From NCBI GenBank assembly GCA_051047955.1, contig JBPGPT010000007.1, positions 434,001 to 498,000 of the forward strand: a stretch of DNA of 64,000 bases, written 5' to 3'. Shown in pieces: positions 55,785 to 64,000 of this stretch. Each line of letters begins with the position of its first letter. Positions within the stretch are counted from its first letter, which is position 1. Source of the stretch: Cystobasidiomycetes sp. EMM_F5. Taxonomy: Eukaryota. A program made the position numbers and the translations under genes. Under the pieces are notes generated by a model that had not been told where the DNA came from, ran no database searches, and was given only the letters and a program-made list of their open reading frames with translations.

Positions 55785-58700
55785 TCAAGAAGAAGGTGAA
55801 GCGGTAGGTGTCCGTCTCTTTTGCGCGAGCCCGCGTATCGATATAGACCGACCTGAGTTGGATGCTGCGCTTGGAGACCCTGCTGGGGTTGCTAAGAAAG
55901 ATGCAGCGACAGAGGTTGCTGGCGATGCGGGCTCCAGGTACCGCGCGCCTGTTCGAGCTTTTGGACTAGAAGTGTCTTTTGGAGTGGAAGGCGGCGTCCC
56001 GCGTCCGGTATGAGCCGCATCATCAAAGCTGAAGGTCACTCTGCGCGCGTAGGCGGCCTGACCTTCGACCTCAGCAGAGACTTTTGGCTTGTAGCTCGCC
56101 CACGAGTCCGCTAGCTCGCCAGTGGCAGCAGGTAGTGTCGACTGCCTAACGGATCCGCTCGCGACAGGGCTAGGTGTGCGCATGTATGATTGACCCGCAG
56201 ACATATGCGTGCGACGAACATATGCAGCTTTGACGCCGCTATCTGCCGAAGTGCTGGGAGCATTGTAGCCCTCAGACGAGGGACGACTCGCTGAGTTCGG
56301 CGTTGAGATAGATCTAGATTGTTCGTCATTTTGTCTCAGTCTTGCGTAATCAGAATCCCTTGAAGGAGGTCCCTGGGTCATAGCTGCGCGGCGCGCCCAA
56401 GCTGCCTGTCCTTCGGCGTCCGCAGATTTCGCAGGCCTGTAGCTATCCCAAGAGTCTTCATGCGAGTCTGCCTGAACTAGGCTGCGCGAAACGGAAGTGT
56501 CAACGTCCTGTTGCCAACCATTTCTCACAGTTGTGGGACTTCGCGTCCGCCCGTCACCATGTCTCGACGAGTGACCGGAAATTTCAGATTCCGTCATTTG
56601 GACACGCGGTCCATTTCGCGGCTGCCAGCCTTGTCCATTTGGCATACTCGTTTGCAATGAAGTATTCCCTCGCGTAGCCCATCCCGCAACTTCTGATGGC
56701 GCTGGTGCATCACGATTATGCATCGTCCCCTTGTCTCGGCCCAATGAGGCCCTGCGCCTGTAAGCATCTTCGCCGCCGCTAGTGCTACTTTGCGGCTGCC
56801 AAGTGTCCCAAGACGTGTCCGCAGACACGCTGGGAACCGATTGATTGGATTGATCATCGTTTCTCGGAGTGCGTGAGGCATTGGAACCAGCTGCGTCTGT
56901 GCTATCGTAAGCGGGTGTGTAAGCATCCCCTCGGTGTCGATTGGTGCGCGCAACTGCACATCTTCCAAGAGGTGGATCGTAATGCTTCCACCCGGTAGTT
57001 CTCGCACCCGGGAGAGGCTCGGGTAACCTGAGCTCTGGTATGGAAGGGTTTATGTCAAGCCTGGAGAACTTATACGACATGTCCCAGCCATCGTCCGCAT
57101 CGGCCACCGGCGATGCTATCCCTGGCTTAGAACTGCCATCCGCAGGTTCATCACGCGTGCCCTGGGTGCCCTTTGATTGCGGCGATTCCGGGCGAAGCGC
57201 AGGCTGGTGCTTGTCACCCCAATTCATAGAAGCACGCTTTGCATAGGCGTCATTTTCCGACTTGATTGGTGTGTAGCTAGCCCACTCATCGTTAACGTCT
57301 CTGCGACGCTCGCTAGAGGAGTGGCTAGCATGGTCATCCTTTGGAGCATCCTCGCCAGATGGCTGATGAGTCGCACTGGCGGCGGCTACGCCATTATGAG
57401 CAGGTGGTGCTGCTGGAGTTGTGCCATCCAACGCAACTCTTCCGGAGGTCATGCTCTTCCGCAGCTCGTATGCATTGTTGGTCGACGTACTAGCTTTCCA
57501 TCCGGCCCACTCGTCACCCGACGAGCCATCTGCTGGTTGTACAGCCAAGTTCGTGGCTATAATGCCATTTGTCACACTGTCTATCGCAGCTCTCGTCGTA
57601 CCGGCAGCTCCGCGTATGCTTACAGCTGCCTTGGCCGAGGCTGTGTAAAGGGGAGCTTCATGAGCAGTAGGGATACGAGCGATAGTGCTATAGGCTGGTA
57701 GATTCTGCTCCGCCGCATGCAGACGAAGAACGTTGATGATACCTTCAGACAGATGATCGAGATCGTGGAGCTCGTCTTCGCCAAGCTTGCCATCGGAACG
57801 GGACCAGTCGTCGCCCGTGTAGCCGCTTCTACAAAGTGGAATGTCAGTGTCTTAACGATGGCAATGTGGATGTAATATAATCACCCCCATGGTTCGCTGT
57901 CGTCAGCGCGACTTGGCGGATCAGAACTGTGGCCCTTGCTACTCATAGCAACGCTTAAGCCCTCATATAAGCGAAATAAGCAGGATTCGAATGTATTTTT
58001 GAGACTTTGCACCGCGCTTAGCAAAGCATGTGATCCCGTCAACGGCAGCCAACCATCGCATGTGTATCTGGATTTGGTCAGTATATATGCAATGTAGTCC
58101 AAATATCTCGGCAATTTTTAGCTCACTTTGAAGACGCCATCGACAGCTTGTGAGCTCCGAAGAGCAGTAGAACGAATGGGTCGATAATGGAAACACCTCG
58201 AAGGAACGAGCCGTGCTTCTGGGTGCCTTCGCCAATTTCTTTATTGGTAGTGGCATCACTGTAGGCATACAACTATATAAAATGTTAGTATGCCATATTC
58301 GTGCTCTATAGACCGGAACTCACTTCTTTCATGTTCGCGGCTGCGCCCTTCTCGCTTCTCTTTGCTGGCGCAAGTACCGAGTTGGGACTGATGACAGCAG
58401 ACTACGCGCGCCCGACTTAGCTCAAGCCAATGTACCGGAAGTGTTCTGCTCGACTCACAGCATCCTGCCTTGTGTGCGTCGTCATGAGGCTCTTACGCAC
58501 AGCAAATCTTGGAGCTACAGCGGCGGCGATGAGAGCAGCAAGCATCGGTAGACACTCGCCGTTCGAGTTCAACGCGGAAGGAATGATTGTCTGGCCAGAC
58601 CAATCGCGAACCAGTGATGTTTGGCGGTCTCGCATCGCTACCTTAAGGACTCCGGCGCGGTCGAGGCTGTTCATAATCTGCTCTTTGACCTTCTGCATCG

Positions 58701-61700
58701 TGCGAAGACTATTCCTTGCGAGGAAATTTTCGTCGCAAAAACGATCTCTCTCATAGCCAACAGGAATGTCTTCCCATTCATTGTAAGCCTTGAGAACAGT
58801 AAGAGTGTCTGAAACGTAGCCGTTCGGTGAGAATCGACGTTTGGCAGCATCTGCCAACGCCTGCGCTACGTTAGTACAATGCAGCATACTCACACGCATC
58901 GCGACTGACTCTTTTTTCGATGGGTGATACGAAAGGATCGCGCTCCGACAGAATGGCTGCAATAGTCACGGCTTGGTCTGAATCGCAGTCAGTAGGAACA
59001 GTACTGATAATGACAGAAGACCCAAACCTACCGAGACATCTGAAAAAACACCCTAACAGGCAGAGCCGCCCAATTGCTGCATCGACAGGCAGCTGGAGGA
59101 GAACTTGTCCGAGCGGGGTCAGGTGCTTGACCGCATCCAGTGCACCGATGGTTGTGAGTGTATTTATGGCAGCAACGACGCGCCGGTTGTCAGGTGGTTC
59201 AATGCAAGCTGCCAAGACTTCTTCCGGTTCCATAGGCAGGCCTAGACCTTTGATATGCATAACTCTGTACGGGAGATAATGAGCTCATGAAACACCTTGG
59301 TAAGTATTGTTTACGTACACATTACTCAGGTCTAAGCGTTTCATTTCGACCACTTGGTGATCAGGCAAGCAAGCCATCCTTTGAGCAGAAACCAAGGAGT
59401 AACATTGGCCTGGCCGGTGACGACCGGCGCGTCCAGCGCGCTGGGCCATATTTGATCGCCCAGTGAAAGAGCAGATCATTGATGACAGATGCCGCATTGG
59501 ATCGAAGCACTTCTGCTTGGAAGTGCCAGCGTCCACGACATACACGACATCGGGTATGGTAACGCTGGAAAGGAACGTACAACAGTATGCTTTAGCCAAA
59601 AGTGTCACAACAATACGCAGTGTCACTCACGATGTTTCGGCAATGTTGGTTGCCAAGATAATCCTTTGACATCCAGGCGGCGCCCGTGTCATCACAGCTT
59701 GCTGGTCCGCAAGTGGGACTGCCGAGTGCAGAATATGGAGTTCGTATTGCGTGAAATCGAGATCGAAAAAGGATTTGTGGTTGTCGAGGAGCTGACGTTG
59801 AACTTGCCTAATCTCCTCGAAACCTGGCAAGAATACGAGAATGTGTCCATCTCGGGTAGCCGATGTCGCAAGACAAACGTGCGCAATGACCAGTGCGATC
59901 AACGCAGTCGGCTGTTTCAGTGGTTCCTTGGTGGCATCATCGGCGGAGATGGGCGTGTACAGCTCTCGATCAAGATACACCTTTGAGAAAGGGTCTTCGA
60001 AGACCCAGCCGCTGCGAGGATCTGTTACACATCGCTTACGCAAGTCTGTAACGGTGTCATCGAGACCGTGTTTTGTTACTGGAAAGGCGCGGCCTGGTAT
60101 GCTGATCACCGGCGCTGGCTGTCGAGTGTGGGGATCTTCCAAGTAACGCTGGAAAAGCGATGGGTCAACGGTAGCTGACATGAGTACGATCTTGAAGGGT
60201 AAGCGGCCGCTTGTCACGCGTCGGCGCGACTCCCGGCGCAAGACGTATAACAGAAGGTCCACATCGACATCGCGCTCATGGACTTCGTCCACTAATATGT
60301 GCGTGACTTCATCGAGGATAGAGACGTCTGCGTCTTGTCCATCCTGTCTCGGCTGCAAGCGTTTCAAGAAGGTACCCGTCGTACAGAATGTGATAGATCC
60401 GTATCTTTCAGGGAGGACAGCTTCGAAGCGTACGTTGTAACCGACGCTCGAACCCACTTTTTCGCCTCTTTCCGAAGCAATACGTTGGGCGACACTGATA
60501 GCTGCCAATCTGCGAGGTTGAGTACAGATAATATTACACTGGCCTCCTATACCGCGCATAGCATGGTCATCCAGGATGATCTGAGGTATCTGGGTAGTCT
60601 TTCCACTACCCGTCGCAGCCGACTGGGATCGGTGTAAAGTCAGAATGACAAGAACGGGCAGGTTTCTTGCAGCTTACAACAATCAAGACCGGGTTCGCGT
60701 CAATCGAAGCTAGCAGCTTCTCTGCGCTTGCAAACACTGGAAGATCTTCTCGTAGGCGCCGCATCTGCTCCATTCGATGATCCTCTCGGTAGTCTCGATA
60801 CTGTTCTCGCAGAGTGTATGACCGTCGCAAAATCGCCTCGTTCATATACTCATCGCTTCCGTAGCCATTCGTAGACTGCGCCGACATCCGAGTACTGGTG
60901 TGCGGCGCGGAAGATAGGCCTTGACTGCGCTTTGCTTCTAGCTCCGTGGCGCGCTTGAACAGCTCCGTCGACTTTGCTCGCGACACAACGTCCCGTATCT
61001 CATTTTCGAGCCTCTCACTCGCCTTGACGGCTACAGAAGGTATCGTTGATGCATTCAGTGCCATGGCAGCCCCTCGAGACTTGACCGTCTCTTTAAAATT
61101 CTTGAAAGCCTTATATCGGGCCCACAATGCCGGGTCACTTGCAGCCAGCCAGCTGCATGCATCCACAAAGGCGGTGTCGGTCGACGACACCTTGGTTGTA
61201 GCGCTGCCAGCGCCGATTCTCTGCTTGTTGACAGAGAGTATCGTAGTCCAGCACTGCCGCCCATGAATATTGGATTGCTCGTGCACAAACTCTGGAGTCC
61301 CGTACCCAAACTGTTTGCAGTAATAGTCGAAAAAGTCGCGAGACGTTATGGAATCGATCAAGACTCCGTTAGAATGACCGGGAACGATCGGCAACGATAT
61401 ACCTTGAGCTATTTGCGCAGGACCAGGTAATATGACAAAAGGCGCGGTCGGTAATGTTTTGGCAGGTTGCTCTGCAGAAGCTACATTGACATTAACGCTC
61501 GAGTTTGAGGTGTGTATTGGTGCCGTCGAGGAAACATCTGCTTCTATACCTCCACTTGCTGGGATATCGTGGTCAACATGTCCATTTCCCTCGTGGGCAG
61601 GTTCATTTGTTGATGCTGTTTCGGAGAGTCCATCGTTGCTGATCGGTTCATCTATTGGAATTTGCGAAGGTTCATTTGTTGATGCTGTTTCTGAGTGTTC

Positions 61701-62546
61701 ATGCTTGCTGACCGGTTCATCTATTGGAATTTGCGAACCGTCGTCGCAGTGTAAGATAGGTCTGCCTGTCGGGCATGAATTGAGCGGAACGACTGGTTGC
61801 GGTTCGCCTGGAGGTGGGGCCAAAATCATCGGAGGTCGATAACTAACATCGTCGGCATGGTCGTTAGTATCCTCGACACATTCGTCGTCTCCGCTGCTGA
61901 TGTCTTCTTCTCCTGGCCGTTGAGGCTGGCCTTTGCGGCTAATCAGATCCCCTTCAATGAGCCAGAGAATGGCGTGAAGTGCAGCCAGACTTTGCGCCCT
62001 GTCGGACGATGCGTCATCTCCGATACCGACAATATCGAGATGCGGGTCAGCCTCTACAAACGCGCTGCGGTATGTCAACTTTAGCTGCGTATGCTAATGT
62101 CTCTGCTACTTTGGGGGCAACAAACCGTTTGATGATCGACTCTTCGCCCTGCGTATCATCCAGATACTCTTTTACGATGTACTCTGGACCCTAGATTGAC
62201 GTGTGCGGTAAGATTAGGCAGCAGTAATAGTGTACGGACAGCATTCTTACATATCCAGTCAATTCGCGGACGAAAATGTCCAGAACGTCCTGTTGACCAG
62301 ACGAGGCTCGCAGTGTAAACATGTGCAGAGACAGACCATCTGAATGAGATATACGACTACCTTTGGATTGAGTATAAACGACGTCGGATACGTCTGACGA
62401 GCATTCTTTGCCGCCTGGACGTGACTTCGCACGATGAATTTCTGGTCATTGAGCGGCAGGGGGAGACGTGGGATTGTGGAGATGTCCAGCGGTGCTTCCT
62501 GTGCCAACTCGCTGTCATTGTCGTCATCTATCCTAGCTTCCGACAT
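55785..62546 (-). CDS. DEAH/RHA-family ATP-dependent RNA helicase with an N-terminal dsRBD-like segment, HA2 domain and a long repetitive disordered C-terminal tail
   Basis: ATGSGKTTQIPQ, CTQPRRLAA, DEVHER, MSAT, LVFLPG, ATNIAETS|VTIPDV, QRAGRAGR and HA2 LTPLGQVLLQLPVD. The last exon (55785-57828) is in frame with the 596-aa ORF. Confidence 0.9.
61600..61737. repeat. 69-bp coding tandem duplication (SQIPIDEP...SETASTNEP x2) in the helicase N-terminal linker
   Basis: ggttcatttgttgatgctgtt occurs at 61600 and 61669. Confidence 0.9.
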
Positions 62547-62851
62547 TGTTGCCAGTCGCTGGACCCAGACACGCAGCGGGACAGCCGTCTTCCGCTTGTT
62601 CCATCATGGACAATGTAGCAGCATGGCAGCGGGTATGTTGTTGCAGATGAAAGCAGAACAACTAGTTTGCGACCGTATTGCATGACTTCGGCAACGTGAT
62701 CGATGTCTCAAATGCTCGCATGGCTTTGCGACTGACCGACCTGATATCCGACAGCTGTTCGCAGAGCTACACGTCTTCTGCAATCTACTCTGCTGGTCTG
62801 CTGCTCGCTGTCGTTGGATCCACGTTCTCGTCTCATTATTATATCTCGCGC

Positions 62852-64000
62852 ATGGAACTGCCGTCATACGATGGCTCGGAAGCCTCTGCGTCGGTTTCAG
62901 TATCAGCGTCCGATACTTATGGTACAGCCCTGCCAGCTCTCCTGAACCTCGTGCCAGAGCCCGGCGAAGTCTCGTTCCAGCAGGGCTACCTCGGGTACTC
63001 GAGCACGTCCATCCGAGGCAGCCTTCAGATCAAATTCACTGGACAGGACCCGTCGTATCGCACCAACGTAGACAGGATAGAAGTCGAGTTTGTCGGGACG
63101 GAGTGCATACAAGGTGAAGGCAGCGAGCATGTGGACCTCATTCGCGATACAAGAGTACTCTGGAAGCGAGGCACGCTAGATTCCGTAGAGGCCGGGACGA
63201 GCGATGGTCGAGTTAGTACGAGCGGACCGCCTGGGAATCTCGACTTCACATTCCCCTTGACCGACGACCTTCCGCACTGCTGTCACATCGGGTCTGGCAA
63301 GATTGCGTATACACTCAAGGCTCAGATGTTTGACAGTCGTACCGGAAAAGCACTGTGTATATCGACGCCTGTTCATCTGTCGCGCTCCTCGCCTCCTCAT
63401 ATCCTCAACCCATCAACAGCCTCGCCAGAGGTCTATACTTCAACGCATCCAACCGAAATAGCCGTCTTCTTCCCACACGGCACATCCAGATTACGTAGAT
63501 CTCAAGCCATCGAGCTGCGCGTCCGTATACCCCCTCCGGATAGTACGCTCGTCGAGGACAAGGGTCTAAAGCTTCGCAGTGTCAGCGCAGAGCTGATTAG
63601 GTCAATCACGATTCACTCTAGCGATGTGGATCAAGGGGACGGAGACAACGATATACAGGCACTAGTAGAGAAGCCAGTTCTTACAACCGTCATATCGCAT
63701 TCCGGGAAAGCAGCCGCCTTTTCCTCTTCACGAAGCGTCTTTCTCTATATATGGCTACAACCGGTACCTCCAGACTCATGCGAATCAGTGACACAGTCGA
63801 CAATCTTTCACGACGTCAAGTTTATGGTTCGCGTCATGGCAGCTTTTGTCGGAAAACAGGGGGATCGACAGGATGTACTTGTTCTAAACAAGGTCGTCAA
63901 CGTCGTCCCAGATTTTCCACCCGCCTCACCCGCCGACCTCGGCTTGTCAGATCATGTGCAGACGCCAGGTGTGGTCAAGCTTCCTCAAGAAGCGAGTAGT
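62852..64000 (+). CDS. Arrestin-fold (alpha-arrestin-like) protein, 3'-truncated by the window edge
   Basis: Open frame from ATG 62852 to the window end (missing from the ORF track because there is no stop): MELPSY...IRGSLQIKF...IEVEFVGTE...LW...DFTFPLTDDLPHC...GKIAYTLKA; LPSY is a PY-type motif. Confidence 0.7.
   Translation, partial: MELPSYDGSEASASVSVSASDTYGTALPALLNLVPEPGEVSFQQGYLGYSSTSIRGSLQIKFTGQDPSYRTNVDRIEVEFVGTECIQGEGSEHVDLIRDTRVLWKRGTLDSVEAGTSDGRVSTSGPPGNLDFTFPLTDDLPHCCHIGSGKIAYTLKAQMFDSRTGKALCISTPVHLSRSSPPHILNPSTASPEVYTSTHPTEIAVFFPHGTSRLRRSQAIELRVRIPPPDSTLVEDKGLKLRSVSAELIRSITIHSSDVDQGDGDNDIQALVEKPVLTTVISHSGKAAAFSSSRSVFLYIWLQPVPPDSCESVTQSTIFHDVKFMVRVMAAFVGKQGDRQDVLVLNKVVNVVPDFPPASPADLGLSDHVQTPGVVKLPQEASS

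Follow-up and report, generated by a model that had tools for sequence, protein, structure and literature searches.

A conserved array of short peptide motifs in the disordered tail predicted to extend a DEAH helicase of Cystobasidiomycetes sp. EMM_F5

The DNA stretch analysed here, called the window throughout, spans 64,000 nucleotides of contig JBPGPT010000007.1 (positions 434,001 to 498,000 of the forward strand) in the genome assembly GCA_051047955.1 of Cystobasidiomycetes sp. EMM_F5. Its minus strand carries, between positions 62546 and 55785, an intron-bearing gene of fungal type whose first ten exons encode a predicted DEAH helicase. The final exon (exon 11, 55785..57828, minus strand) encodes a long tail, delimited by an open frame of 681 codons with its stop codon at 55785-55787, by the splice acceptor TTTGTAG|A at 57829/57828 and by four homologous proteins, P0003 to P0006. 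Spaced along this tail are copies of a bipartite peptide motif. Conservation among the homologues, sequence shuffling and structure prediction support the view that short motifs form a genuine, conserved array in the tail, within a disordered region.

The gene model was built by hand from a three-frame printout, in which stop-to-stop open reading frames (ORFs) of all three frames carry parts of the helicase. It has 11 exons that make up a coding sequence of 5985 nt (1994 amino acids) free of internal stops, and its introns are all of the GT..AG type. Nine introns measure 49-66 nt while the first, of 276 nt, is tentative, as is the first exon. Exons 1-10 with their introns (57885..62546, minus strand) encode a helicase of ~1313 amino acids. 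The spliced product contains motifs I (GxGKT, as GSGKTTQ), II (DExH, as DEVH), III (SAT) and VI (QRxGRxGR, as QRAGRAGR) of the DEAH/RHA family, and also TNIAETS. Pfam recognises DEAD (29 bits), Helicase_C, HA2_N (29.3 bits) and HA2_C (21.8 bits), the two HA2 domains above their cut-offs; the double-stranded RNA-binding domain (dsRBD) family dsrm stays just below threshold, at 22.4 bits for a cut-off of 23. The exon coding for the helicase core matches DHX9 (E-value 1.3e-53), MLE (4.5e-53) and DHX36 (9e-52) among sequences of the Protein Data Bank (PDB), where 64 DEAH helicases are found at E<=1e-5. The alignment of exon 7 to DHX8 (ratchet) begins at the first residue of the exon, which supports the choice of its acceptor. 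The oligonucleotide-binding (OB) fold, divided among exons 8-10, was recognised by reading the sequence rather than by a scan in a single piece, and a second, split dsRBD-like stretch was seen by eye only. The N-terminal exon has no match among PDB sequences at E<=0.01. Judged by its motifs and domain matches, the enzyme is a predicted DEAH/RHA helicase of the DHX9/DHX36 clade. To place it within the DHX9/MLE subfamily proper would go beyond the evidence, given a borderline dsRBD match and the lack of the Gly-rich RGG box of DHX9/MLE, the 681-residue tail having 0 RGG and 5 RG.

The first intron (62085-62360, minus strand, 276 nt) is much longer than the other nine, and a 47-codon open frame at 62047-62190 (...EYIVKEYLDDTQGEES...) within the first-intron region may be a missed exon. 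The N-terminal part of the model is therefore uncertain. The N-terminal linker (~61590-61745, minus strand) features a tandem duplication of ~23 residues (...SQIPIDEP...SETASTNEP) at model residues 181 and 204. In the HA2 region, the length of a 54-nt intron (58978-59031, minus strand) is a multiple of three and no in-frame stop lies within it, so that its retention would add 18 residues and not truncate the protein.

The last intron (57829..57884, minus strand, 56 nt) has the donor GTGATT, a branch-like CTGAC 15 nt from its 3' end and the acceptor TAG. Exon 10 ends with ...SEPWG and two spare bases (GG) at 57885, to which exon 11 adds the A at 57828 to make a Gly codon. Translation across the junction reads G-SGYTGDDW in frame and continues for 681 codons to the stop codon of exon 11. 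A previous reading of this DNA from its letters only (hereafter the sequence-only reading) had proposed that the last helicase exon runs in frame into an ORF of 596 amino acids. This ORF was located at 55785..57575 with a GTG start; its frame is open upstream to 57851, which gives 688 codons from stop to stop, and the in-frame GT..AG junction bears the proposal out. The first ATG in the frame of exon 11 is codon 134 of P0001 (57452), beyond the conserved leading helix and the first motif unit. The 110 codons that precede it include the most conserved part of the tail. As no ATG is found before codon 134, these conserved codons cannot be initiated inside exon 11 and need an upstream exon. The only upstream coding exons on this strand are those of the helicase, which favours a fusion. 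It is likely that helicase and tail are one protein, as modelled with the splice-compatible in-frame junction, and that the two would be joined at the transcript level.

Of the donors of the nine short introns, GTGATT alone has no G at position 5; GTAGTC, the donor of the tentative first intron, has none there either. An in-frame TGA (57883-57881) inside the last intron implies that intron retention would yield a helicase without tail. A tail-only product might conceivably start at an in-frame ATG in exon 10 (57946-57944, minus strand). Together with the weak donor and the retention stop, this ATG could allow the presence of the tail to be regulated.

The tail begins with a leading segment (57639..57785, minus strand; residues 23-71 of P0001, LGEDELHDLDHLSEGIINVLRLHA...IARIPT...) that is delimited by identity to the homologues and by an AlphaFold2 (AF2) model, with a predicted helix at residues 25-48. 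The motif units that follow are ~22-26 residues long and bipartite. They consist of D/E-x-W-x2-[YW], extended in some by x-P, then a spacer of 7-12 residues, and a helix with the pattern (N-D)-A-[YWF]-x-R-R-x-x-[MLIF]-[ST]-x-G. The tail has five full units and a degenerate one. The sequence-only reading had counted six copies of a W..[YW]...A[YW]xRRxS repeat. The six peptides that it quoted are present letter for letter and five of them are full copies, while the Trp half is missing from unit 5 (EGYNAP...).

All units are read from the minus strand. Unit 1 (GDEWAGWKASTSTNNAYELRKSMTSGR, 57438..57518, helix 126-135) aligns with the units at the same position of P0004 and P0006. Unit 2 (NDEWASYTPIKSENDAYAKRASMNWGD, 57213..57293, helix 201-208), unit 3 (DTSWDTWQPQSSTSGGEDAYRRRASLGRDK, 56730..56819, helix 360-372) and unit 4 (EDSWDSYRPAKSADAEGQAAWARRAAMTQGP, 56367..56459, helix 477-492 with per-residue confidence (pLDDT) of 73-86) are supported by the motif, the alignment and AF2. 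Unit 4 has a long spacer, as has unit 6 (ADSWASYKPKVSAEVEGQAAYARRVTFSFDD, 56019..56111, helix 593-607), which aligns to SDWAAYKPKIAAEVEGSQAHQRRAAM of P0006. The degenerate unit 5 (56190..56282) keeps the helix half AAYVRRTHM, has lost the Trp half and has no aligned unit in P0004 or P0006. Two subtypes can be distinguished, one with a short spacer ending in N-D-A-Y and the other with a long spacer S-A-E-x-E-G-x-x-A-[YWH]. Between units 2 and 3 the tail codes for two central motifs that do not belong to the repeat, DDGWDMSY..R....PSIPEL followed by TTGWKHY (56976..57092, minus strand), with 16/39 residues identical in P0004 and 17/39 in P0006.

The C-terminal end carries a further conserved motif, (R)SISIRGLAQKRR (55812..55853, minus strand). 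It was read by eye and is unscored, its placement by MAFFT being inconsistent; the counterparts RQISIRGLAKR (P0004), LEIAIKGRAQRR (P0003), KGISIKGNFQR (P0005) and TLNIVGSEARER (P0006) were likewise found by eye and are unscored. Beside this motif, the last 80 residues of the tail (55788-56027, minus strand) hold 8 of its 18 [ST]-P dipeptides. The cluster may be a target of proline-directed kinases or a nuclear localisation signal region.

The motif exceeds what chance would be expected to give. Six motif patterns, all chosen post hoc after inspection of the data, were counted in 5000 shuffles that preserve the composition of the tail, and for none of the patterns did a shuffle attain the actual number; A[YW].[RKL][RK]..[MLF], for instance, is found 6 times against a shuffle mean of 0.004. 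A search of the six frames of the window for the full motif gave 5 occurrences, all in the frame of the tail. Tandem Repeats Finder reported no DNA-level tandem repeat in the tail, which indicates that the units are old and diverged.

A HMMER search of 1.84 billion representative proteins (E<=0.001) matched five proteins: the window's own ORF, P0003 (3.6e-29), P0004 (6.8e-19), P0005 (6.5e-8) and P0006 (8.5e-8). The latter four are tail-only proteins of 633-863 amino acids that start within ~35 residues of the conserved leading segment, and all carry the leading helix and the motif, partly with the same order of units. A metagenome scan with a pattern derived from the alignment gave 59 pattern matches and no confirmed relative. 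Across 49 residues, the leading segment shares 35-51% identity with each of the four homologues, with the consensus L-x-E-x-E-[IL]-x-D-L-x-x-L-S-x-x-[IV]-[IV]-x-V-L-x-L-H-A...I-A-R-x-P-T. Also shared with homologues are the central pair, as [DG]WDMSY...PS[IV]P.L and TGW.[YP]Y, and an I-S-I-[RK]-G-like motif at the C-terminus. A W-D-[TA]-W-G motif (GWDTWG, VWDAWGG, AWDTWG) is found 20-60 residues past the leading helix of P0003, P0005 and P0006, and has no counterpart in the window or P0004.

A regular expression for the helix half, with positions 0, 1, 3, 4 and 7 fixed, identified 29 units, of which 6 are in the window, 12 in P0003, 3 in P0004, 4 in P0005 and 4 in P0006. W-x2-[YW] is present 7-12 residues upstream of the helix half in 24/29 units. 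Positions left free by the expression are conserved too, namely N at -2 (20/29), D at -1 (20/29) and G at +10 (19/29), per-position counts that are inflated by the 12 units coming from recently amplified, nearly identical repeats of P0003. This amplified region, at residues ~170-770 of P0003, is a super-repeat of ~94 residues, each copy of which has one full unit and one half unit with the helix only (DPLKKNDAY.RR...). Its near-identical copies show that arrays of this motif can expand quickly. A profile made from the six units of the window scored 18 homologue units, each above 9.8 bits, the highest of the 1052 domain scores obtained with 1000 shuffled versions of the homologues.

The window units run collinear with the units in P0004 and P0006. 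Identity is 40-49% in the motifs and 24-30% in the linkers, in agreement with the multivalent array of the sequence-only reading, which was to be given up if motif positions were no better conserved than linkers. Residues opposite gaps number 76 in linkers and 2 in motifs when the tail is aligned to P0004, and 57 and 25, respectively, in the alignment to P0006, the 25 motif residues falling where units of P0006 are degenerate. Trp is identical at 8/13 and 9/14 aligned positions for an overall identity of 28-29%, a difference inflated by the BLOSUM scoring, which favours W-W pairs.

The AF2 model, computed for 688 residues with the five-sequence alignment, has a mean pLDDT of 41 and a predicted template modelling score of 0.20. 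In all, 585/688 residues are below pLDDT 50, which upholds the earlier description of the linkers between units as disordered. The helix of the leading segment (residues 25-48) reaches pLDDT 83-92. The short helices fall exactly on the second halves of units 1-4 and of unit 6, and the one at residues 477-492 is the best predicted of them. On a helical wheel (100 degrees per residue), A0, Y1, R3, R4, M7 and S8 span 300-100 degrees and form one face, and the angles of 140-240 degrees are taken up by positions 2, 5, 6 and 9, which vary. The N-D that precedes the helix and the G that follows it are likely cap-like.

The chemistry of the tail is defined by neutral charge (D+E 79, K+R 77) and by Trp. 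Its 2.2% Trp is high for a disordered region, and the five tails range from 1.3 to 2.2%. In the window tail, 7 of the 15 Trp adjoin Gly (reached by 23/5000 shuffles) and 13/15 have a small or polar residue on either side (0/5000 shuffles). Enrichment of Trp adjoining Gly is found in four of the five tails (7/15, 5/13, 7/15 and 5/13; 18-65 of 5000 shuffles reach these values). The window tail thus shares one attribute of WG/GW Argonaute (Ago) hooks, namely several WG/GW in disordered sequence of small and hydrophilic context. Conservation is not restricted to WG/GW and composition, as it extends to A-[YWF]-x-R-R-x-x-[MLIF], to the N-D before it and to the G after it.

The sequence-only reading had also viewed the repeat as unrecognised, which the searches with the repeat and the tail sustain, no family being found in Pfam, PDB sequences or the ESM Atlas. 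The tail has no Pfam family at E<=0.1, and its four homologues gave only sub-threshold chance matches (VCPO_2nd, 16.8 bits for a cut-off of 27; Stb3, E-value 0.52). The repeat profile found nothing among PDB sequences at E<=10, the whole-tail profile a single chance match (E-value 2.9), and exon 10 and the first 62 residues of the tail, each searched by itself, nothing meaningful. The ESM Atlas returned no usable match. Literature searches turned up neither the motif nor a DHX9-like helicase of fungi that has a tail of this sort, and a text search for motif strings gave just five matches, all to unrelated words. Judged against Pfam, PDB sequences, the ESM Atlas and the literature, the motif is provisionally considered undescribed. 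A few resemblances are kept as leads only. The leading helix may correspond to the terminal helix of DHX36-type helicases, and the motif may resemble the aromatic-x-basic-basic-x-x-Met stretch before the G-patch of SPF45/DRT111. Further candidates of this kind would be the eIF4E-binding YxxxxL-hydrophobic helix, whose Leu position is Ala here, LC3-interacting region motifs, Sin3-interaction helices and the C-terminal helicase-binding box of ALYREF.

How might such a tail work? The last exon would add, past the OB-fold region, ~680 residues made of one conserved helix and then a disordered, Trp-rich, neutral tail. Numerous helices conserved on one face, each with an acidic di-aromatic hook, variable linkers between them and a copy number of 3 to 12 suggest an array of elements whose folding is coupled to binding (molecular recognition features). 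The aromatic pair would enter hydrophobic pockets of a partner, and the Arg-Arg/Met face would sit on an acidic-hydrophobic groove. The array may gather several copies of the partner on the helicase, or it may anchor the enzyme in an assembly where the partner is abundant. Neutral charge and the acidic residues built into the motif suggest a protein partner rather than nucleic acid. The tail is accordingly best read as a multivalent docking array for a putative protein partner on a helicase of the DHX9/DHX36 clade, a reading to which we assign a probability of about 50%. Its essence, a multivalent array of short linear motifs, had been put forward from the letters of the DNA and is sustained by conservation, by the shuffles and by disorder with local helices.

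One alternative would be that the tail is non-functional, drifting low-complexity sequence, in which the motif is a by-product of an old internal duplication. Its composition is of low complexity (S 13.8%, A 13.5%) and copy number varies from 3 to 12 among homologues. The same residues are nevertheless kept at matching positions where linkers are just 24-30% identical and no repeat survives in the DNA, which makes drift hardly credible. Phosphorylation offers another explanation. The consensus of protein kinase A (PKA) is R-R-x-S/T-hydrophobic, and the sequence-only reading had taken the units, written with RRxS, as possibly phospho-switchable. The strict R-R-x-[ST] is found in 2/6 units of the window (RRAS and RRVT, the PKA fits being RRASL and RRVTF), with K-R-A-S and R-K-S as looser versions, and it is not conserved in the homologues. 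The Ser of RRxS occupies position +6, which is S, S, S, A, H and T in units 1 to 6; it is thus S/T in 4/6 window units, in contrast to 3/23 homologue units, 14/23 of which have Ala. This position lies at 240 degrees, opposite the conserved face, and the conserved residue after R-R-x-x is the hydrophobic one, not Ser. As the Ser is neither conserved nor on the conserved face, a PKA switch is not a feature of the family; PKA-type phosphorylation lies outside the conserved motif, it improbably accounts for the units, and it would be at most a lineage-specific overlay. Apart from the PKA-like pattern, the ending R-R-V-T-F of unit 6 would also fit the RVxF-type docking motif of protein phosphatase 1; this ending is confined to the window and absent from the matching unit of P0006. 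A third possibility is that the units bind nucleic acid, either in place of the RGG box of DHX9 or as an aromatic/basic stacking helix like the one with which DHX36 binds G-quadruplexes. The helicase core is equally close to DHX36 and DHX9. Each unit displays aromatics and an Arg pair on one helix face, and the tail occupies the place where DHX9, in the available part of PMC5173168, has its single-strand-binding RGG box. A charge-neutral tail with 0 RGG, the motif's own acidic residues (D/E ahead of W, N-D ahead of the helix) and a repeat profile that misses DHX36 and all other PDB sequences at E<=10 speak against nucleic acid, and this explanation is quite unlikely.

Among protein partners, Trp-pocket proteins of RNA silencing or decay would be the candidate class by analogy, with Argonaute as first choice. 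The tail would then be an Ago-hook-like platform coupling the helicase to the small-RNA machinery, as in plant SDE3, a possibility that we hold as doubtful. In its favour are the disordered Trp-rich region, in which the neighbours of W are G, S, D and E, the GW/WG enrichment in four of five tails, the precedents of SDE3 and of WG platforms encoded by 3' exons, and the listing of DHX9 with Ago-2, Dicer and TRBP in the available part of PMC5173168. Hooks described in the accessible text on such platforms keep only WG/GW and composition, whereas here the helix half with its Arg pair is as conserved as Trp, which the classical Ago-hook model leaves unexplained; P0003 carries half units made of the helix alone, and its tail shows no enrichment of GW (717/5000 shuffles reach its count). 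These half units without Trp and the missing enrichment weigh also against the docking array as a whole, as does a homology that rests on only four clusters, with 12/29 units from the P0003 array. The remaining objections concern the helicase-tail fusion. GTGATT ranks among the weakest donors of the model, each of the four homologues is a tail-only ORF call and none shows an upstream helicase, and searches with the tail and with the N-terminal exon found no annotated full-length fused protein. The tail might then not, or not always, be part of the helicase, as a result of intron retention to the TGA at 57883-57881 or of a tail-only product from an internal promoter that starts at the exon-10 ATG and uses the same last intron. 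The relatives that invite this idea, each beginning within ~35 residues of the conserved helix, resemble stop-bounded ORF calls from unannotated eukaryotic contigs, like the window's own P0002 that begins at the GTG inside the exon, and are uninformative on splicing, neither for nor against an upstream helicase. Searches with the tail for longer proteins gave none, as did those with the N-terminal exon, and the search among proteins of similar length only P0002, negatives that are weak evidence. The lack of an ATG in exon 11 before codon 134 despite 110 conserved preceding codons, and an in-frame junction with a good branch site and acceptor, leave a separate tail rather unlikely. The docking array on a fused helicase is hence retained as the preferred reading. 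In its boldest form, which is a long shot, the units would be a new class of Trp-pocket ligand, with a GW-like aromatic hook and a capped Arg-Arg helix, that links a DHX9-like double-stranded RNA helicase to several Argonaute or deadenylase-complex molecules in a narrow fungal lineage. The tail would be a helicase-borne counterpart of GW182, and splicing of the weak last intron could decide whether the array is included.

The genes that neighbour the helicase gene are housekeeping ones, coding for ferrochelatase, a Nup155-type nucleoporin, a SWIRM/Myb protein and a GH71 protein. The divergent neighbour (62666-64000, plus strand) is an open frame of 445 amino acids that runs out of the window and has no Pfam match at E<=1e-4.

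Accessory tails determine where DExH helicases act, by mechanisms that are poorly understood beyond animals. A conserved and countable peptide motif offers a direct experimental handle for tracing the protein that a DHX9-like enzyme of fungi would bind. Were this partner Argonaute or a subunit of CCR4-NOT, the concept of the hook would be widened beyond bare GW dipeptides and fungal silencing would be tied to the unwinding of double-stranded RNA. Should there be no such partner, the tail would be an ordinary lineage-specific disordered extension. The reach of the family is limited, as five clusters were found among 1.84 billion representatives.

Among the systems nearest to the window protein is DHX9/MLE. 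The likeness lies in the helicase core, for which DHX9/MLE is the best DEAH match, a possible N-terminal dsRBD, HA2 and a repetitive tail past the OB fold. After this fold DHX9 has a nuclear localisation signal and a variable RGG box of ~120 amino acids whose length differs between species (available part of PMC5173168), so that the statement of the sequence-only reading that DEAH/RHA helicases usually end soon after HA2/OB is too strong. The same portion of this source lists DHX9 as a partner of Dicer, TRBP and Ago-2. As far as this source goes, a repetitive accessory tail past the OB fold is normal for DHX9, and what differs here is its length (~680 against ~120 amino acids), its chemistry (0 RGG, neutral, Trp-rich) and the defined bipartite motif.

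SDE3 of Arabidopsis, a UPF1/MOV10-like enzyme, belongs to a helicase superfamily other than that of the DEAH enzymes. It shares with the window protein a helicase followed by a C-terminal disordered region with functional Trp in acidic surroundings. According to the accessible part of the report, SDE3 binds AGO1 via Trp of this region (10.1101/2025.10.18.683247, which cites Garcia et al. 2012). Its hook, as described there, is made by GW dipeptides only, while the tail studied here, known from sequence, has a capped Arg-Arg helix that is equally conserved. The GW182/TNRC6, NRPE1 and SPT5-like platforms resemble the tail in multiple Trp, a hydrophilic context of small residues, a separate 3' exon and a varying copy number. 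In the available portion of PMC2910046, WG/GW platforms often lie on 3' exons of their own and are open to changes by alternative splicing, and classical Ago hooks conserve only W/G and composition. With that portion as reference, the difference is that 8-10 further positions are conserved here and that about half of the Trp are not beside Gly.

Two other comparisons draw on general background. The substrate consensus of PKA is matched strictly by 2/6 window units and loosely by 2, and the units differ in that the phospho-acceptor is unconserved (3/23 homologue units). PEX5 carries an array of WxxxF/Y di-aromatic motifs. It is alike in having several short di-aromatic motifs along a disordered region, each docking the same partner; here the aromatic spacing is i, i+3 and not i, i+4, a helix with an Arg pair is added, and the bearer is an RNA helicase instead of a peroxisomal receptor. 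As a kind of system, the protein would be a DExH helicase whose accessory tail is disordered and bears motifs.

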